Source: Microthrixaceae bacterium
GTDB taxonomy: Bacteria; Actinomycetota; Acidimicrobiia; Acidimicrobiales; Poriferisodalaceae
Assembly: GCA_011523825.1 (NCBI GenBank)
Contig: WTFX01000026.1
Location: forward strand, 96,834-160,833
Reading direction: 5' to 3'
Length of the DNA stretch: 64,000 nucleotides
Part shown: positions 12,119 to 23,439 of the stretch, in pieces
Layout: each line of letters opens with the position of its first letter
Numbering within the stretch: the first letter of the stretch is position 1
The notes under the pieces: model-generated
The model's database searches: none
Seen by the model: only the letters and a program-made list of their open reading frames with translations
Told to the model about the DNA's origin: nothing
Translations under genes and position numbers: made by a program

Positions 12119-12172
12119 ACGCACCGGCAACTGCTGCGGAGAGTTAGGCGCTGCGTCGTGGAGTGGATCGTG

Positions 12173-12493
12173 ATGACCGGCCACACCGTTGCGGAGGCGC
12201 GTGATCGTGGCCTCGATGCGCTCTCGGTCGCGGTCGAGGATGCGGATATCGAGATCCTGGCTGAGCCGGGCCGCTCGCACTGGGGGTTTCGACGCCAACC
12301 TGCTCGCGTTCGCATGCGGGTACGGCCGACTGGACCGCCGCCGCGAGTGGGCGACCAGCGCCGAGACCGCCGCAGATCCCGCCGCCGCTCAGCCGGCGGC
12401 AATCGCAACGCACACAGGCGGCAGGATTCCGGACAAGGCCAGCGCGGCGGCGGCAAATCCTCGCGCCGCCGTTCCCGTTCCGGCCGCCGATGA
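12173..12493 (+). CDS. Jag/KhpB N-terminal domain only (5' half of a split jag)
   Basis: Reads MTGHTVAEARDRGLDALSVAVEDADIEILAEPGRSHWGFRRQPARVRMRV, which follows the Jag_N pattern, then an Arg/Gly-rich linker, and stops at TGA 12491-12493. No KH or R3H domain is present in this ORF. Alternative GTG starts lie at 12158 and 12170. Confidence 0.7.
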   Translation: MTGHTVAEARDRGLDALSVAVEDADIEILAEPGRSHWGFRRQPARVRMRVRPTGPPPRVGDQRRDRRRSRRRSAGGNRNAHRRQDSGQGQRGGGKSSRRRSRSGRR

Positions 12494-12504: not shown

Positions 12505-14547
12505 TCAGCTTGTCAACGGGTGCCGCTGCTTCGCGATCTTGAGCTTCAACCGCTTGTTGGGCGACATCGAAGGAAATGGGCTGATCTTCAGCTTGTAGTT
12601 CGACGGGGAGATCTCGAACGTGAAGTAGTGCGCGAGCATCAGCAGGCTCAACAGCATCTGGAGCTCCACCATGTGCGAACCAAGACAGCTATGCGTGCCG
12701 AGGCCAAAAGGTGCGTAGCCCGGTGTCCGGTGTTCACCGCGTGAGGGCAGATAGCGATCAATGTCGAAAGTAAACGGATCCGGAAAGACCTCGCTCATGT
12801 AATGCGGTGCAGTCGTGGCGATGAACACCTTGGAGCCGACTGGCAATTCGTAGTCTTCGATGACACATGCGTTCATCACCGTGCGGATCGACATGGGCAC
12901 CGTGGGCCACAGCCGCAAACACTCCATGATAAAACGTCGAGTGACGTCGATCGCGGGCGAGTTCAAGTCTTCTGACAGCGGATCTCCGTTGCCAAACAAA
13001 GCATCTGCTTCCGCCTGAATGCGTTCGTATAGATCCGGCTGAGACACCATCGCATGCAAGATAAAGCTGAGCTCATCTCCCGCGTACATACCCGCCAGTA
13101 CCGGTGCCGAGAAGGTAAAGCTGAGATTTGACTCGGGTACGAAAATTGGATCGCTGCTGTGCAAGCTGAGAACGTCATCGGCAAGATCGCGAGGGCAGCC
13201 AACCCTCTGCGCCGCTGTATGAGACTCCAAGACGCGATCATACAGAACGTCGACGACTTGCTTTTTTCGCTTCATGCGTGGCGTATAGAGCATGAAGTTC
13301 GGCAGGACATTGACGACTTGGGTCATGAGCACGCGGGACTTGTATGCGATGAGATCGTCGATGACGTCGTCTGCTTCAATGCTGGCGAGGAAGGGCGTGA
13401 CCTGAGCGCCAGCGAAGCCACGACACATGGATACAGCGCCCAAGGTGTCGCCGACGGTCCAATTGCTCATGTACGTTCGCGCATGCTGATACACGGTCTC
13501 AAGCTGCTGTTCGAATCGTGCTCGGCCATAGCCCGCACGCAGCGCTTTACGCATGCGGAAGTGATCTGCACCGTCCAGTGCAGGCAGCAGCCCGGAGGCG
13601 TGATACGCAGTCTCGAGACCTCGGAGATAGTCGCTTGACCTGAGGTGCATGCGGCCATGACGGTGAACCCAACGATTGACGCGAGGGCCTGCCAAGAAGG
13701 TAATTTCCCGTTTGGAAAACAGGGGCTTGAGCCTGAAGACAGGACCGAACTCTTCAGTCAATTGTGCATAGACGGCAGGGATGTTTCCCCGAAGGAAGTG
13801 GCGATTGAACAGCAGCTTGTTCAGCGGCAGCTTGGGTATCGACTTCGTCAGAGCGGAGCTTCTGAGCAGCGATGCCACCAAGTTGTGCGCGACGGCATCT
13901 GCGATGGCCCTGCCGATCAGATCCATCTGGCAGATGAGCTGGACTCGCTCCTCCGCTTCGTCGTCGAGCTCAAAGATGAAGCGCAGCACATCGCAGGTGT
14001 GGGCGAGGCCGATGATGATGACATCTCTCGGGCTGGGAATCTCGCCCAGCAAGATCGATCTGCCTATGCGCGTCTTGATGAACTGGACAGCCGTGTCGTC
14101 GTCATCGCCGGCAAAGAAATCGCTGTGCCGGGCCGCTGCCGTCAAGCTCCAGAAGTCGCCATCGTGATGCTCGAGGATCCCGAGTCTGACCAGTTGCTCC
14201 AAGGCCAAGTCGACCATCATCTCGGCGCGAGGCGCGAGGCGCTCCACCCAGTACTGCGCACCGTGCTGGTTGGGCTCGCTCGCGATCTGCTGGAGTGCGA
14301 GGTCCAGGATCGGCTTGCCGGTCGGCGTGGGGTCCAGCAGGATCAGCGACTCCATGTCGGTGTCAATTCGCGCCTGCAGCGAGAGCTCGGCCAACGCGGC
14401 ACCGGCCATGGCGCAATTCAGGTGCCAACCGGGCACCTGGTGGAAGTACCCGCTCTCTTCGCTGAGCAGCACCAGGATGAGCTCCTCGGTCAGGTCGAGC
14501 GGCTGCGCAGCGGTGACCTTCGTCGATGCTGTCGATGAAACAGTCAA
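12505..14547 (-). CDS. GOLPH3/GPP34-like N-terminal domain fused to cytochrome P450
   Basis: The N-terminal ~230 aa (LDLTEELILVLLSEESGYF...CAMAGAALAELSLQARID...PTGKPILDLALQQI...) fit the GPP34 pattern. The C-terminal domain has the ExxR motif (MECLRL), FDIDRY, and the heme-Cys loop FGLGTHSCLG. The only upstream start option is TTG at 14547. GC content is visibly lower than in the flanks. Confidence 0.8.
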   Translation of the reverse strand: MTVSSTASTKVTAAQPLDLTEELILVLLSEESGYFHQVPGWHLNCAMAGAALAELSLQARIDTDMESLILLDPTPTGKPILDLALQQIASEPNQHGAQYWVERLAPRAEMMVDLALEQLVRLGILEHHDGDFWSLTAAARHSDFFAGDDDDTAVQFIKTRIGRSILLGEIPSPRDVIIIGLAHTCDVLRFIFELDDEAEERVQLICQMDLIGRAIADAVAHNLVASLLRSSALTKSIPKLPLNKLLFNRHFLRGNIPAVYAQLTEEFGPVFRLKPLFSKREITFLAGPRVNRWVHRHGRMHLRSSDYLRGLETAYHASGLLPALDGADHFRMRKALRAGYGRARFEQQLETVYQHARTYMSNWTVGDTLGAVSMCRGFAGAQVTPFLASIEADDVIDDLIAYKSRVLMTQVVNVLPNFMLYTPRMKRKKQVVDVLYDRVLESHTAAQRVGCPRDLADDVLSLHSSDPIFVPESNLSFTFSAPVLAGMYAGDELSFILHAMVSQPDLYERIQAEADALFGNGDPLSEDLNSPAIDVTRRFIMECLRLWPTVPMSIRTVMNACVIEDYELPVGSKVFIATTAPHYMSEVFPDPFTFDIDRYLPSRGEHRTPGYAPFGLGTHSCLGSHMVELQMLLSLLMLAHYFTFEISPSNYKLKISPFPSMSPNKRLKLKIAKQRHPLTS

Positions 14548-14712
14548 GTGACGCTCCTGATCACGCGGGGCGCAGTGGTCGGCCCTGCGTTTGGGAAGAT
14601 CATCTCAAGTGTACGGACAGTTACTGGTACGGGGCGCAGCACCGGCGCTTCTCGAAGGCACCGATCATCCGGTCTAGCCTGCGGCATCGCTTCGGATAGA
14701 GAGCGCGTCTCG

Positions 14713-15765
14713 ATGGCCGCTAGACCCCCGCAGGAAGCAAACGTTAGTTCGCTTCCGCCATTTCCGGAAGGCTGGTTCTTCATCGCGACGCGCGACGCCG
14801 TACAGAAGGCGGGATTGATTCAACGGACGTGGATGGGCACCGAGATCATCGTCTGGTCTGATCCGGCCGGTCAGATCTGCATCGCGAAATCGGTATGCCC
14901 CCACTTGGGCTCCGATCTGGGACCTGAGGCCGGCGCGAAAGTCGTCGGCGGGAGACTCGTCTGCCCCTTTCACGGGTTCGAGTTCGAGACCAGCGGGCAG
15001 TGCGTGGCCACGCCATCTGGCGCGCCCGCCCGTTCCGCCAAGCTGGATCTCTTCGAAGCCCGTGAGATCGAAGGTCTGATCTTCGGCTGGTGGGGCCTCG
15101 GAGGACGATCCTCGCAGTGGCAGCTGCCCGATGTTCCGCAGACCGATGACGACTGGACCGATCTCCAGATCCGCACGATTCGCTTTGCTGGTCATCCGCA
15201 GGAGACCAGCGAGAACTCTGTGGACATTGCGCACCTGAGCTGTATCCACGGCTACCACAACGTCACCAACGATGCGCCGGTGTCAATCGACGGGCCGCGA
15301 CTCGAGAGCCGGTTCAGTTTCTCGACGACCCGGAGGATTGCCAAGGTCGCCAAGCTGACCTTGGATGTCTCAGCCATTGCCCACGTGGTGGGGCTGGGCT
15401 ACTCCTTTGTCCAGTTTCAGGAGCGTTCCATCGGCCTTGATGCTCGGCTGTGGGTGTTGGCGGCGCCGGTCGACGGCACGCTGATCGATATGTCCATCGT
15501 GTCGAGGATGCGCACGCTGCACAAGCCCAAGCGACCGGTCGTCGGCTTGAGCTTCCTGCCGACGCGGATGCGGGCGCCCATCGTGAACAAGTTCATTGCG
15601 GATCTGCAGATCGGTGAGGTCAAGCAGGATGTGGTGATCTGGAGTCGCAAGCACTACGTGCCACGCCCCCGGCTCGTGAGCACCGATGGCGAGATCATGA
15701 AGTACCGGGAGTACTGCGCACAGTTCTATTCCGGCGAGCGTGAGTGCGAGGCGCCCCGACGCTGA
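14713..15765 (+). CDS. Rieske [2Fe-2S] non-heme-iron oxygenase (KshA / cholesterol-7-desaturase-like alpha subunit)
   Basis: The Rieske ligands are CPHLGSDLG...CPFHGFEF. The mononuclear iron motif is ENSVDIAHLSCIH (D-x2-H-x4-H). The start is set at ATG 14713 (MAARPPQEANVSSLPPFPEGWFFIA); the track ORF from 14548 is over-extended. Confidence 0.8.
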   Translation: MAARPPQEANVSSLPPFPEGWFFIATRDAVQKAGLIQRTWMGTEIIVWSDPAGQICIAKSVCPHLGSDLGPEAGAKVVGGRLVCPFHGFEFETSGQCVATPSGAPARSAKLDLFEAREIEGLIFGWWGLGGRSSQWQLPDVPQTDDDWTDLQIRTIRFAGHPQETSENSVDIAHLSCIHGYHNVTNDAPVSIDGPRLESRFSFSTTRRIAKVAKLTLDVSAIAHVVGLGYSFVQFQERSIGLDARLWVLAAPVDGTLIDMSIVSRMRTLHKPKRPVVGLSFLPTRMRAPIVNKFIADLQIGEVKQDVVIWSRKHYVPRPRLVSTDGEIMKYREYCAQFYSGERECEAPRR

Positions 15766-15933
15766 ACTGCCCGGTCGCTCGCAGTGAGCGTCGCGAGTCT
15801 CAGGGGTTCCGCGCCGACGGACCCGTAGGCTGCGCACTGCCCACATCGCGCGAGCAGTCCAAGAGCAGCGTGCGCGGACTGACACCGCCCGATGTGCGGC
15901 GGGCCCCTACGCATGCGTGCCCGATCAGAGGTG

Positions 15934-16458
15934 ATGAAGATGACAGGTGAGACAACGACAGCCGAACAGCAAGTCATGGTGCAGGAGTTCTTGGACGGCT
16001 TGGTACAAGCGTTCGGTATCGAGGCAACAGCGGTGCCGGTCGCAGCAGATGACGACAGCTTCGAGATCAATCTCGAGGGTGAGAACGAGGCGCTGGGGCT
16101 GTTGATCGGACCGCGCGGCCGTCACGTGGTTGCGCTCCAGGAGGTCGCAAAGACCATGCTGCAGCGCAGGCTGCCGGGTGTGCGTCGTGCGCGAGTGAGA
16201 GTGGATGTGGGCGGCTACCGGCAGCGCCGTCGCGAGGCACTCGAAGCGTACGTTCGCGAGCTCGCCGATGCCGTAGTGGAACGCGGAACGGAACGTGGAC
16301 TTGAGCCGATGAACGCGGCTGATCGCAAGGTTGTGCATGACACGGTCAACGAGATCGCCGGTGTTGACACGATCTCGGTGGGCGATGAGCCGCGCCGGCG
16401 CGTTGTGCTGGTGCCGTCCGGCTCGACCGACGCTCCCAGCCAGAGCGACGAGGCGTAG
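15934..16458 (+). CDS. Jag/KhpB KH + R3H domains (3' half of a split jag)
   Basis: The KH GxxG motif is in LLIGPRGRHVVALQEV. The R3H motif is in MNAADRKVVHDTVNEIAGVDTISVGDEPRRRVVLVP. ATG 15934 or 15940 follows AGAGGTG. The frame is closed by TGA at 15880-15882 upstream. Confidence 0.75.
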   Translation: MKMTGETTTAEQQVMVQEFLDGLVQAFGIEATAVPVAADDDSFEINLEGENEALGLLIGPRGRHVVALQEVAKTMLQRRLPGVRRARVRVDVGGYRQRRREALEAYVRELADAVVERGTERGLEPMNAADRKVVHDTVNEIAGVDTISVGDEPRRRVVLVPSGSTDAPSQSDEA

Positions 16459-16471
16459 TCTCTCCGGCTGA

Positions 16472-17092
16472 TCAGAAAAGCGGTCGCTTCCGGATCTGTT
16501 TCCAGGTCCGGGGGTATGCCGGGTCGGCCGCCGTCAGACACTCCAGTTCCGCAAACGTCGGTGTGTCTGCGGTTCTCCGCACGAATCGCATCCCGAGCTG
16601 AGCGAGAGCATCACGTGGCCAGCGCGCCTCACCGCCTTTCGGCGGCTCGCTGACCACGAGCCTGCCGCCCGCGCGCAACAGGCCGGCACTGCACTCGGCG
16701 ACCGCAGCTGGGGGACCGAACGCCCGGCTGACGACGCCGTCATAGACAGAGCGATGCTGGGGCAGGTGAGCGAGTTCGGCGGCATCACCGAGGGCGATCG
16801 TGACACGATCAGCGAGCTGGAGGTCCTGAACAGCAGTGTTGAGAAAGTCGGTCCGTCGCTGTGACCGGTCCAGCAGCACCAACTCCATATCGGGCAGCTC
16901 CAGAGCCATCACGAGTCCGGGCACTCCCCCACCGCTCCCGAGATCGCACCAGCGCTGACCGGGCAGAGGTTGAGCGGCCGCGTGGTGGGCTCGTGCGTGC
17001 ACCACATGGGCCTGGAGGTCACCGGGGCCGAGAAGTCCTTGTTGTTGGCCGCGTCTGAGCACGGCAACAAGGCGTTCTTCTGCCACGGCCAT
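16472..17092 (-). CDS. rsmG: 16S rRNA (guanine527-N7)-methyltransferase RsmG/GidB
   Basis: Contains the SAM motif WCDLGSGGGVPGLVMAL...LLDRSQRRTDFL...VVSRAFGPP...GGRLVV. It is encoded on the strand opposite to jag and parAB. Confidence 0.85.
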   Translation of the reverse strand: MAVAEERLVAVLRRGQQQGLLGPGDLQAHVVHARAHHAAAQPLPGQRWCDLGSGGGVPGLVMALELPDMELVLLDRSQRRTDFLNTAVQDLQLADRVTIALGDAAELAHLPQHRSVYDGVVSRAFGPPAAVAECSAGLLRAGGRLVVSEPPKGGEARWPRDALAQLGMRFVRRTADTPTFAELECLTAADPAYPRTWKQIRKRPLF

Positions 17093-21933: not shown

Positions 21934-23439
21934 CTAGGGCGTGACGGCGTCGGTGCTGGGTGGTGCTTCGACCCCGCTGATGGTGGTGGCGACTTCGATG
22001 CGGGAAACCGTGACCCGATGCCCGCCGTTGGGCAACTCGTCGCCGAGATCGGTGATCCATACGAGCAGAGCAGCGGCCTCGGCGGCGGGCACATCCAGCG
22101 TCGTGGAACCGGTGATGTCCTGCGCTGTCGCAACTGGGTTTCCCCAATCGATCAGCGTGCGATTGCGCTCGCTTGATGCGTACAGTTCGAAGGACCAGCC
22201 GACAGTGGGGGAATCGATCACCAAGCGCTCGACCGAGTGTGGCTCGTCGCCGTACAGCACGACGATCAGCCCGACGCCGTCCTTGAGCCCGCCGAAGTCC
22301 CGGGTGTTGTAGCGCGCGGTGCTCCAGCCGGTACTCGGATCGCCGTCGTTGATGAAGATGAGGCGTTCAGGATGCTCGATCCGGTCGTCGCCGGCCGGGT
22401 CGAAGTCGGTGATCGACTCCAGCAGGATCGGTACTCGGCGAACCTGGGTTGTCGTCGGTGCCGGCGGGGCTGTCGGCACCGTCTGCGGAGCGGCAGTCAC
22501 CGCGGTTGCGGTCGCAGTTGCCGACGGCACCACCGTGACGACGGGCTGGGTACCAGCGGCTGGGACCGTGGTCACCGGGGGCGGTGATGTTTCCGTGGCG
22601 GGTTCGGACGGCTGCCCGATGACCAACGCGACCCCGACAAGCGTGGCGGCTGCCGCCACCAGAATGCCGACGGGTGCAAGCCAGTGTCGTTCTGCCTGCC
22701 ATACCGACCTGCGATCAGTGCTTGCACCGTTGGTTGCCGGCAGCTCGTCGACGACTGACCGCAGTGCGAGCAGCATCGACGGGAGATCGGGCCACGGATC
22801 CGATGCGCTGATGGCCCGTGCCAGCACCGGGGCCACGACATCAGGCACAACTGGGTCGAGTTCCCAGGTGCCGTCGGGTCGCCGCTGAGGCGCCGCCCCG
22901 ACGACGAGTCGGTGCGCGAGCACGGCGATCGATGCCAGATCAGCGCGCCGTGTGGCGGGAATGGTGACGGCATCGTCGGTGGGCGGACCGTTGAGAATGA
23001 CCCAGCCCACCTCAGCGCGCCACCCGATGTACTCGGCGTCGACGCCGCCGTGGGCGAAGCCCGCGCTGTGCAGAACAGCCAGCGCCTCGGTCACCGCGAT
23101 GACTATGCGGATCGCTTCGGTCGCAGCGAGGCGCCTGGTGTCTCCATTGGGTGCCGCGAGCTCGTCGGTGAGCATTCTCGTGGGCAGTTGCTCGGTGACG
23201 ATCGCAAAATGGTCTGCTTCGTCGTAGGTGTCGAGGATGTGCAGCAAACCGTGGTGCTCCACCCGCGCCAGTGCCTTGGCCTGCAGGCGCAGACGGTGAC
23301 CTATCTCGCTGTCGGCAGTTGCCCGGCGAATCGTGACCGGTCGATTGAGCGTGCGATCCAAGCCGGACCACGTCTCGACTGCGCCCGGCTGCAGCAGCTC
23401 GTGCCGCTCGTACCGTTCGTTCGAGCCGGAGTCGGTCAC
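21934..23439 (-). CDS. Pseudokinase-TM-extracellular sugar-binding-like protein (equivalent to the C-terminal part of mycobacterial MviN)
   Basis: It has a kinase-like fold with degenerate motifs: VTIR replaces VAIK, AHGGVD replaces HRD, and there is no DFG. A Pro/Thr-rich TM segment follows, then a C-terminal discoidin/CBM-like region. The GTG start overlaps the degV TGA. Confidence 0.65.
   Translation of the reverse strand: MTDSGSNERYERHELLQPGAVETWSGLDRTLNRPVTIRRATADSEIGHRLRLQAKALARVEHHGLLHILDTYDEADHFAIVTEQLPTRMLTDELAAPNGDTRRLAATEAIRIVIAVTEALAVLHSAGFAHGGVDAEYIGWRAEVGWVILNGPPTDDAVTIPATRRADLASIAVLAHRLVVGAAPQRRPDGTWELDPVVPDVVAPVLARAISASDPWPDLPSMLLALRSVVDELPATNGASTDRRSVWQAERHWLAPVGILVAAAATLVGVALVIGQPSEPATETSPPPVTTVPAAGTQPVVTVVPSATATATAVTAAPQTVPTAPPAPTTTQVRRVPILLESITDFDPAGDDRIEHPERLIFINDGDPSTGWSTARYNTRDFGGLKDGVGLIVVLYGDEPHSVERLVIDSPTVGWSFELYASSERNRTLIDWGNPVATAQDITGSTTLDVPAAEAAALLVWITDLGDELPNGGHRVTVSRIEVATTISGVEAPPSTDAVTP

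Follow-up and report, generated by a model that had tools for sequence, protein, structure and literature searches.

A GPP34–cytochrome P450 fusion protein of the GPP34_L family with an adjacent Rieske oxygenase: domain structure, gene context and a possible role in sterol oxidation

Introduction

The combination of an N-terminal GPP34 domain and a cytochrome P450 in one chain has been published as "GPP34_L" by Ferreira et al. 2025 (Microbiome 13:4; PMC11706023), where it accounts for 656 of the 663 long GPP34 proteins. GPP34_L is monophyletic, is distributed over many phyla, is found in sponge symbionts only and not in their free-living sisters, includes the bacterial family TK06 (= Poriferisodalaceae), and is transcribed in Aplysina aerophoba. 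Rare fusions of GPP34 with a Rieske domain occur as well. That study contains no analysis of the binding residues, signal peptides, sterol genes, sterol methyltransferases (SMTs) or the Rieske neighbor of the long form. We report here on a member of this family in a Microthrixaceae bacterium, encoded in a 64,000-nucleotide stretch of contig WTFX01000026.1 (called the window below; coordinates refer to it unless another locus is named). The 680-residue protein is encoded next to a Rieske oxygenase. We lean slightly toward the view that it is a cytoplasmic, membrane-docked P450 that oxidizes a sterol or a sterol-like triterpenoid together with this partner.

As the architecture of the fusion is already known, it is the function that matters. 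The sole published proposal is a secreted effector that binds phosphatidylinositol 4-phosphate (PI4P), against which an intracellular sterol oxygenase is set here as a testable hypothesis. In the searchable literature, there is no paper linking GPP34 to sterols, and none on Poriferisodalis.

Structure and integrity of the fusion protein

The gene is a single, unbroken reading frame of 680 codons on the minus strand, and its two domains are located as follows.

12505-14547, minus strand: GPP34-P450 fusion coding sequence, 680 residues, with a TTG start at 14547, the stop codon at 12505-12507, and Pfam GPP34 and p450 matches.
13885-14493, minus strand: GPP34/GOLPH3-like domain, residues 19-221, from Pfam, the profile comparison with GOLPH3, AlphaFold2 plus Foldseek, and conservation.
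12508-13842, minus strand: cytochrome P450 domain, residues ~236-680, from Pfam, the profile alignment with CYP51, and AlphaFold2 plus Foldseek.

In the full-length AlphaFold2 model (mean pLDDT 82.9, pTM 0.72), the junction between the domains consists of a helix (residues 210-228), conserved among relatives, and a low-confidence stretch (residues 225-230).

The fusion claimed by the earlier note, which was made from the sequence alone, is genuine. The protein is one open reading frame (ORF) with both Pfam domains and both folds. PF05719 and PF00067 are on one chain in 120 of 120 homologue clusters among the matches listed (59-94% identity, 650-717 residues). More than 140 full-length relatives share the fusion, and it is seen in 80 genome loci, many of which are closed long-read chromosomes, as well as in 79 metagenome loci. 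A frameshift or misassembly joining two genes, the possibility that the earlier note had wanted checked, is ruled out by the universal fusion in the relatives, by the closed chromosomes and by the conservation of the helix between the domains. Purifying selection acts on the two domains, each of which is intact.

The GC content is 0.56 in the P450 half of the gene, 0.63 in the GPP34 half and 0.67 in the window, and the GC3 computed over the full gene, 0.74, is unremarkable. The low GC of the gene (58%, compared to 67% for the window) was considered as a sign of recent transfer and dropped. With a normal GC3, the deficit lies in codon positions 1 and 2 and not in third-position usage, and the signal is unusable.

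Distribution of the family

A scan of genomes, with one genome per species, found 191 relatives, and the loci of the best 80 were analyzed. The hosts among these best 80 of 191 include Acidimicrobiia, Dehalococcoidia, Latescibacterota, Nitrospirales, Gemmatimonadota, Binatia, Thermodesulfobacteriota, Acidobacteriota, Rhodothermaceae, and Alpha- and Gammaproteobacteria. The closest loci, at 92-98% identity, are those of Candidatus Poriferisodalis metagenome-assembled genomes, which include 680-residue orthologues at 94-98% identity. On the strength of this similarity, the bacterium of the window is taken to be sponge-associated. A scan of metagenomes was limited to the best 80 of 126 relatives, with 79 loci retained from 12 data sets. 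Four of the 12 data sets are named as sponge metagenomes in the supplement of Brown et al. (LXNJ from Petrosia, LXNI from Sarcotragus, and Ga0209021 and JGIcombinedJ30088 from Aplysina), while the sources of the remaining ones (MKWU, Ga0209754, Ga0209544 and others) could not be checked. For the data sets with a checked source, the scan is consistent with the sponge restriction reported earlier (PMC11706023).

The family is confined to sponge-associated bacteria, in more than 10 phyla, and this distribution points to horizontal transfer. The search for further GPP34+P450 fusions that the earlier note had advised finds many of them, spread across these phyla. Its remark that no characterized P450 has this architecture holds in the sense that no member is biochemically characterized; the architecture itself was already in print.

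Two or three GPP34-P450 genes are found in tandem or close by in several loci (L076, L077, L059, L094, L151, L055, L064 and L080). The Thermodesulfobacteriota locus L077 has three copies, and in some cases the identity of a second copy is as low as 41-55%. The multiple divergent copies point to paralogue diversification, as in families of tailoring enzymes.

The P450 domain

The Pfam p450 profile (PF00067) matches with E = 4.5e-39 and 134.9 bits, compared to a cutoff of 22.8; the match spans the C-terminal half only. With a profile of the family, residues 253-647 align to the whole of Methylococcus capsulatus CYP51. The AlphaFold2 model has the full P450 fold (residues ~236-680), and the best match in the Protein Data Bank (PDB) has a TM score of 0.79-0.82 (Foldseek). 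Three motifs have assigned positions in the gene. Column frequencies, here and below, were computed over 144 non-identical relatives.

12913-12924, minus strand: K-helix ExxR motif, E542-C-L-R545, from the translation; E542 and R545 are each present in 143 of the 144 relatives, the remaining one being gapped.
12679-12708, minus strand: heme-binding loop FGLGTHSCLG, residues 614-623, with Cys621 as the predicted thiolate ligand.
13075-13095, minus strand: I-helix oxygen-activation motif, A485-G486-M487-Y488-A489-G490-D491, from the alignments, the modeled helix 472-502 and the columns of the 144 relatives.

In the heme loop, C621, H619 and G617 are invariant (144/144). The PERF-type motif is FDIDRY at residues 594-599, and R598 is present in 143 of the relatives. 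The earlier description of a complete C-terminal P450 with ECLR, FDIDRY and FGLGTHSCLG agrees with these positions, with the Pfam match and with the modeled fold.

The I-helix is the unusual part of this domain. The canonical A-G-x-(E/H)-T-(T/S) motif aligns to A485-G486-M487-Y488-A489-G490 in two independent profile alignments, with Methylococcus CYP51 and with the CYP102-type P450DA, and residue 489 occupies the usual place of the Thr in the modeled helix. Tyr488, at the position of the acid, is invariant (144/144). The residue equivalent to the Thr is Ala in this protein, and Leu, Val, Ala or Met in the family, with Leu in most members. Gly490 is present in 143 and Asp491 in 130 of the relatives. 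Neither Thr nor Ser is among the four commonest residues at position 489 or 493 in the 144 relatives. The acid-alcohol pair of (A/G)Gx(D/E)T(T/S), which is typical but not universal in P450s, is absent here.

The earlier note had proposed that the Thr is replaced by Leu, reading the motif as AGDELS (489-494). The loss of the Thr stands, and the acid is lost as well. The register is four residues off, and it is rejected in favor of 485-490 on the basis of the two profile alignments and the helix geometry; the equivalent residue is Ala489 and not Leu493. The alignment that the note had called for at this position finds Ala489, and no Thr. Together, Tyr488, Ala/Leu489 and Asp491 suggest that proton delivery may be non-standard, or that the enzyme may catalyze a reaction other than hydroxylation, for example a desaturation or a rearrangement. 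The sterol C22-desaturases CYP710 and CYP61 reportedly have Ala at the position of the Thr, which would be a parallel to this family; this could not be confirmed and is not used as evidence here.

Orthology to CYP51 was considered and rejected. The identity is 18-20% (94 bits), the I-helix has Tyr-Ala instead of His-Thr, and no CYP51 model is among the NCBIfam matches of the fusion protein.

The GPP34 domain

The Pfam GPP34 profile (PF05719) matches residues 19-221 over profile positions 1-200 of 201, with E = 4.3e-31 and 109 bits, compared to a cutoff of 29.1. A family profile of the domain matches GOLPH3 with E = 5e-6. When the GPP34 domain is modeled on its own (residues 1-232, pLDDT 80), GOLPH3 and Vps74 are the only significant matches in the PDB (E = 3.6e-9, TM scores of 0.66-0.69), and the next match has E > 0.1 (Foldseek). 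The GPP34/GOLPH3 pattern that had been noticed in the first ~230 residues is thus a full-length domain with the GOLPH3 fold, and a significant profile match does lie within residues 1-250, where the earlier note had asked for one. Structure prediction, another of its suggestions, confirms this fold as well as that of the P450. The domain is mainly helical, with a β-hairpin (residues 125-135) that has a conserved tip, H127-H128-D129-G130-x-F132-W133.

The PI4P pocket of GOLPH3 is formed by residues that we take to be W81, R90, R171 and R174, and Arg90 is reportedly required for PI4P binding. Trp81 corresponds to W41, which is kept in 137 of the 144 relatives. The counterpart of Arg90 is position 48, occupied by Val in 59, Ala in 48, Ile in 26 and Thr in 5 relatives (138 of the 144; the other six are not itemized). 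Arg171 and Arg174 align to Leu and Asp columns, in a low-confidence stretch of the alignment. The loss of the Arg90 equivalent argues against carrying over phosphoinositide binding from GOLPH3, the eukaryotic function that the earlier note had brought in, though W41 is kept.

No signal peptide, Sec/Tat-type signal or transmembrane segment was found in the fusion protein, and its N-terminus is polar and poorly conserved. The sole 19-residue window above a Kyte-Doolittle value of 1.6 (residues 176-194, 1.68) is located on short helices of the GPP34 fold in the model, and not on a membrane-spanning helix.

The Rieske partner

The only non-housekeeping companion of the fusion gene in the window is a divergently transcribed gene for a Rieske protein.

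14713-15765, plus strand: Rieske [2Fe-2S] non-heme-iron oxygenase, 350 residues, with a KshA-type catalytic domain; divergent, with Pfam Rieske and KshA_C matches.
14548-14712, no strand: divergent intergenic region of 165 bp between the P450 and Rieske genes, presumed to be a shared regulatory region.

The start at ATG 14713 gives the family-typical length of 350 residues. The protein matches Rieske (E = 9e-15) and KshA_C (E = 3e-22) in Pfam, and its three best relatives in the PDB are all 3-ketosteroid 9-alpha-hydroxylases (KshA, E = 1e-19). In the alignment, its CPHLG...CPFHG, DIAHLSCIH and QDVVIW segments match the cluster motifs and the His/His/Asp iron-site motifs of KshA. The score against the NCBIfam model for SdmA (NF052579) is 29 bits (29-34 bits with relatives included), far from the cutoff of 600. 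No sigma-70-like promoter was detected in the 165-bp intergenic region, and there are no meaningful terminator calls at the two-gene insert.

Gene neighborhoods of the orthologues

The ORFs of 159 loci (13 from Poriferisodalis and 146 from other bacteria) were clustered, and the recurrent families were annotated (Sterol_MT_C PF08498, Sterol-sensing PF12349, ERG4_ERG24 PF01222, KshA_C PF19298, LppX_LprAFG and LolA_like). The following families recur in the flanks of the GPP34-P450 gene, with the counts given for the 146 loci outside Poriferisodalis.

Rieske/KshA_C orthologue, 49-62% identical: 74 of 146 loci, and 13 of 13 in Poriferisodalis.
Methyltransferase with Sterol_MT_C (SMT), 345 residues: 61 of 146 loci.
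Flavin adenine dinucleotide (FAD) oxidoreductase of the amine-oxidase type, 460 residues: 50 of 146 loci.
MMPL/HAE3 transporter of the resistance-nodulation-division (RND) type with a sterol-sensing domain (SSD): 44 and 19 of 146 loci, in two subfamilies.
AcrB-type RND pump: 20 of 146 loci.
LolA-like lipoprotein: 15 of 146 loci.
ERG4/ERG24 reductase: 12 of 146 loci.
LppX/LprAFG-like lipoprotein: 10 of 146 loci.

The Rieske gene is the commonest neighbor of GPP34-P450. The Rieske/KshA_C, SMT, FAD oxidoreductase, MMPL-SSD transporter and ERG4/24 genes are taken together as a core set. For the 97 loci outside Poriferisodalis that span 15 kb or more, one or more core genes are present in 91 and two or more in 70, and an SMT or ERG4/24 gene is found in 54. 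Measured as the median gap, the SMT is 86 bp from the P450 gene, the FAD oxidoreductase 279 bp and the Rieske gene 282 bp. In these other lineages, SMT, ERG4/ERG24, FAD oxidoreductase, SSD-RND transporter and lipid-carrier lipoprotein genes are found at distances of up to a few hundred bases from the P450/Rieske pair. No family resembling oxidosqualene cyclase (OSC) or CYP51 was found among the gene families present in at least 5 loci, not all of which were annotated.

One of the metagenome loci (L132) is contig LXNJ01000389.1 from Petrosia ficiformis, which carries, in this order, genes for an SMT, the FAD oxidoreductase, GPP34-P450, an MMPL-SSD transporter, the Rieske protein, a major facilitator superfamily (MFS) transporter and an LppX-like protein. 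The SMT of this contig is among ten symbiont SMTs that were tested in vitro, of which 8 methylated desmosterol (Brown et al. 2023). Horizontally transferred clusters of steroid genes have been described in the same phyla of sponge symbionts (Kelly et al. 2022). GPP34-P450 is mentioned in neither of these papers. The Aplysina scaffolds JGIcombinedJ30088_10000835 and Ga0209021_1000146 of Brown et al. are not among the best 80 metagenome loci kept.

The 460-residue FAD oxidoreductase (for example L035:10121-11500, plus strand, and L132:8436-9839, plus strand) is phytoene-desaturase-like, with weak matches to protoporphyrinogen oxidase and HpnE. It is a candidate for a further enzyme of sterol or triterpenoid tailoring.

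Proposed function

We propose that the fusion protein would be a heme-thiolate P450 in the bacterial cytoplasm, docked by its GOLPH3-like domain on the inner face of the cell's own membrane. A sterol or closely sterol-like triterpenoid would be oxidized at the membrane, with the KshA-like Rieske oxygenase as the partner; the sterol could be made by the symbiont or derived from the sponge. The GPP34 domain would replace the transmembrane anchor of eukaryotic sterol P450s. The Trp41 pocket and the aromatic hairpin tip (F132/W133) may seat the protein on the membrane or hand over the lipid, and electrons would be supplied by a ferredoxin and reductase encoded elsewhere in the genome. This is the reading that we favor, by a modest degree of belief. 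The earlier guess of a sterol-like membrane lipid as the substrate gains support from the Rieske gene here and from the SMT, ERG4/ERG24 and SSD-RND neighbors in the relatives, all of which is evidence from genomic context. Moreover, the existence of rare GPP34+Rieske fusions (PMC11706023) implies that GPP34 can be attached to either oxygenase of the pair, and this fits a role for GPP34 as the targeting module of the P450/Rieske pair.

Several observations weigh against this proposal. In the 64-kb window, the Rieske gene is the sole companion of the P450, and no SMT, MMPL or FAD oxidoreductase gene is present; the sterol context is thus taken over from orthologues with 52-61% identity. A substrate cannot be identified from gene association, and hopanoids and other lipids are likewise transported by SSD-type RND proteins. 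The genome and metagenome loci come partly from the same sponges, and the neighbor counts are not independent. The similarity to CYP51 is low, as is that of the Rieske protein to KshA and SdmA. The in vitro result for the LXNJ01000389 SMT itself is given only in a figure of Brown et al. 2023 and could not be read. Within the 159 loci, no conserved small ferredoxin or redox partner was found beside the P450 gene. Finally, membrane docking by the GPP34 domain is a pure inference on our part.

The SMT-like gene adjacent to the P450 is a further point of caution. Its region I reads MIFGWGESLHF, compared to the canonical YEYGWGxSFHF (L043:10090-11127, minus strand; L019:10060-11097, minus strand), and this subtype is ~40% identical to the SMT on the contig of Brown et al. 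(L132:5131-6171, plus strand). The substrate or product of this SMT-like enzyme may differ from those of the SMTs that were assayed.

A broader scheme can be put forward only tentatively, and we consider it rather unlikely. GPP34-P450 and the Rieske protein would be the mobile core of a sponge-symbiont island for the tailoring and trafficking of sterols, which would also include SMTs, ERG4/24, the FAD oxidoreductase, SSD-RND pumps and lipid-carrier lipoproteins. With this island, bacteria of more than 10 phyla would remodel sterols of the sponge or their own, and GPP34 would be a module for the membrane and for sterol hand-over, not a PI4P effector.

Alternative explanations

The alternative that survives best retains the membrane docking and changes the substrate to another hydrophobic molecule that is plentiful in sponges or their symbionts. 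Candidates are hopanoids and further triterpenoids, brominated or long-chain lipids, carotenoids, and natural products of the sponge that are detoxified; the product would be removed by the adjacent efflux systems. We consider it possible, though on the unlikely side. AcrB/HlyD/OEP efflux sets recur in the loci, as do MFS and ATP-binding cassette (ABC) transporters (20, 11, 9, 12 and 14 loci, respectively). The MMPL proteins match both the models of the hopanoid transporter HpnN and BstA, the FAD oxidoreductase resembles the phytoene-desaturase/HpnE class, and the window has no diagnostic sterol gene. The P450 is also about equally close in the PDB to the fatty-acid hydroxylases CYP102, CYP184A1 and CYP4B1, the carotenoid hydroxylase CYP97 and a taxadiene hydroxylase. 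On the other hand, the SMT (Sterol_MT_C) and ERG4/ERG24 are diagnostic for the chemistry of sterol side chains and rings, and they are the tightest-linked neighbors after the Rieske gene, as seen from their frequency in the large loci and the short median gap of the SMT. The three best solved relatives of the Rieske partner are all steroid hydroxylases, and bacterial SMTs from the same sponge metagenomes act on sterols in vitro.

The published model (PMC11706023) is that of secreted effectors, in which GPP34 proteins of sponge symbionts bind phagosomal PI4P and block maturation so that the symbiont escapes digestion, with the P450 having an accessory role. The restriction of the family to sponge symbionts and its absence from free-living sisters agree with this model, as do the GOLPH3 fold with its conserved W41 and the transcription of GPP34_L in Aplysina aerophoba; PI4P-binding effectors are used by pathogens such as Legionella, as PMC11706023 argues. 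The features of the protein fit it less well. There is no Sec/Tat-type signal behind the polar, poorly conserved N-terminus, and the same sequence organization is found in monoderm and diderm phyla, which have no common secretion system. Heme must be inserted into a P450, which also depends on a reductase chain, a poor fit with export. The Arg90 equivalent is a small or hydrophobic residue in nearly all relatives, and Arg171 and Arg174 fall on Leu and Asp columns (with the low alignment confidence mentioned above). The genes conserved nearby encode enzymes of lipid tailoring and transporters of lipids, and not secretion functions. The residue, signal-peptide and neighborhood evidence weakens the effector model, and we consider it improbable.

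It is also conceivable that the heme domain has no monooxygenase function. It could be an enzyme that rearranges peroxides or epoxides, or a peroxygenase (compare CYP74, CYP8A, CYP5A and CYP152), or a module that senses or binds lipids, in each case with a substrate that overlaps those discussed above. The invariant Tyr488 at the acid position, the hydrophobic residue at the Thr position in the 144 relatives and the lack of a dedicated redox partner conserved nearby would be explained in this way. However, several ordinary O2-dependent P450s function without the Thr. P450eryF has Ala at this position, and CYP51 has a His that replaces the acid. The near-invariant Asp491, two residues beyond the Ala, could serve in a proton relay. 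Moreover, the Rieske partner depends on a reductase too, so that an electron chain encoded in trans must exist in any case. This alternative is very improbable.

The weakest alternative, that the fusion is an artefact of two genes joined by a frameshift or misassembly, has a negligible chance of being correct, as the fused protein is found in all 120 listed clusters (673-697 residues) and in complete long-read chromosomes of more than 10 phyla, with the inter-domain helix conserved.

The locus in the window

The fusion gene lies among housekeeping genes close to the replication origin, with dnaA ~3 kb away; the genes identified in the window include gyrA, gyrB, recF, dnaN, dnaA, yidC, parA, parB, dnaB, dnaK, clpB and pur genes. 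No other sterol genes, P450s or redox partners were found among the annotated ORFs of the 64-kb window. The P450/Rieske pair is flanked by two parts of jag/khpB, which encodes an RNA-binding regulator.

12158-12493, plus strand: Jag_N and Arg-rich linker ORF, the N-terminal half of a split jag/khpB, with a Pfam Jag_N match; left edge of the two-gene insert.
15892-16458, plus strand: KH and R3H ORF, the C-terminal half of jag/khpB, with Pfam R3H and KH matches and positions 57-201 of NCBIfam Jag_EloR; right edge of the insert.

The true start of the second ORF is probably near 15940, as its orthologues have 163-172 residues. The P450/Rieske pair is located between the Jag_N and KH-R3H ORFs in 13 of 13 Poriferisodalis loci. 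In a relative without the insert (L160:4275-5492), the two jag halves are adjacent, 37 bp apart, and the Jag_N ORF of the window is 56% identical over residues 1-63 to the 229-residue ORF that precedes the short jag there. As the two halves are already separate in this relative, the pair was inserted between pre-existing halves, and the idea that the insert split the jag gene is rejected. More distant Acidimicrobiales have a single Jag_N+KH+R3H protein of 285-329 residues. No convincing scars of mobile elements or terminal repeats flank the insert.

In the window, as in every Poriferisodalis locus, the rsmG (gidB) gene (16472-17092, minus strand) is opposite in direction to jagC, parA and parB, and it is co-directional with them in the insert-free relative (L160, 5684-6154, plus strand). 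This difference in orientation suggests a small inversion beside the insertion site. Elsewhere in the window, there is no Pfam match at E <= 1e-5 for a 501-residue ORF (21934-23439, minus strand) that has degV on one side and a thioredoxin-reductase-like gene on the other.

Implications

As far as the searchable literature shows, three observations are new: the association with sterol clusters, the missing Arg90 and an invariant Tyr488. With the proposal made here, an unexplained marker of symbiosis becomes a testable hypothesis in enzymology. GPP34-P450 travels with SMTs of the kind that builds 24-alkyl sterols in vitro, and the family bears on the question whether unusual sterols such as 24-isopropylcholesterol, which are used to date the first animals, originate from the sponge or from bacteria. 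If the broader scheme is correct, symbiont oxygenases would contribute to the unconventional sterols of demosponges that serve as the oldest animal biomarkers, and the GOLPH3 fold would ancestrally have tethered lipid-modifying enzymes to membranes. The family is also a starting point for the role of this fold in bacteria, and it offers enzymology an unstudied P450 group in which an invariant Tyr replaces the catalytic acid.

Comparison with known systems

The closest system is GPP34_L itself (PMC11706023). The architecture is identical, with PF05719 at the N-terminus followed by PF00067 at the C-terminus, and there is no structural difference. The restriction to sponge symbionts and the bacterial family (TK06 = Poriferisodalaceae) are shared as well. 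The difference is in the interpretation, as the published effector model is not supported by the tests of residues, signal peptide and neighborhood carried out on this protein.

GOLPH3 and Vps74 (PDB entries 3kn1, 9qpq and 2zih) have the same fold as the GPP34 domain, with 20-21% identity, and the conserved Trp (W81 of GOLPH3) and the protruding β-hairpin are common to them. In comparison, Arg90 of GOLPH3 is replaced in the family by small or hydrophobic residues, and equivalents of Arg171 and Arg174 are not evident. GOLPH3 works unattached, as an adaptor that serves Golgi glycosyltransferases and COPI, whereas the domain described here is fused to an enzyme, in the bacterial cytoplasm.

The best solved relative of the P450, by profile and by fold, is the CYP51-ferredoxin fusion of Methylococcus capsulatus (6mcw, 6mi0 and 7jj1; E = 6e-26, fold TM score of 0.79), which is likewise a bacterial P450 of a sterol pathway that occurs as a fusion. 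Its fusion partner is a C-terminal ferredoxin, compared to the N-terminal GPP34 domain here. The low identity, the different I-helix (His-Thr as opposed to Tyr-Ala/Leu) and the lack of a CYP51 assignment in NCBIfam or Pfam indicate that the two are not orthologues.

The Rieske protein in the window shares with KshA the Rieske and KshA_C domains, with the cluster and iron ligands aligned, at low identity. It is not an equivalog of SdmA, the sterol C-4 methyl oxidase. Unlike KshA and SdmA, it belongs to a 350-residue family of its own that travels with GPP34-P450. The pairing of a P450 with a Rieske protein in a sterol context mirrors that of CYP51 and SdmA in bacterial sterol synthesis.

The eukaryotic microsomal sterol P450s, such as the plant C22-desaturase CYP710A, provide a functional analogy only, in having an N-terminal membrane-targeting element before the P450. 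The tomato enzyme C22DES is active in vivo only with its anchor, which has been proposed to aid the uptake of sterol from the membrane (PMC7972189). The anchor of the CYP710A type is a transmembrane helix, whereas the corresponding element of the fusion protein is a 200-residue domain of the peripheral-membrane type.

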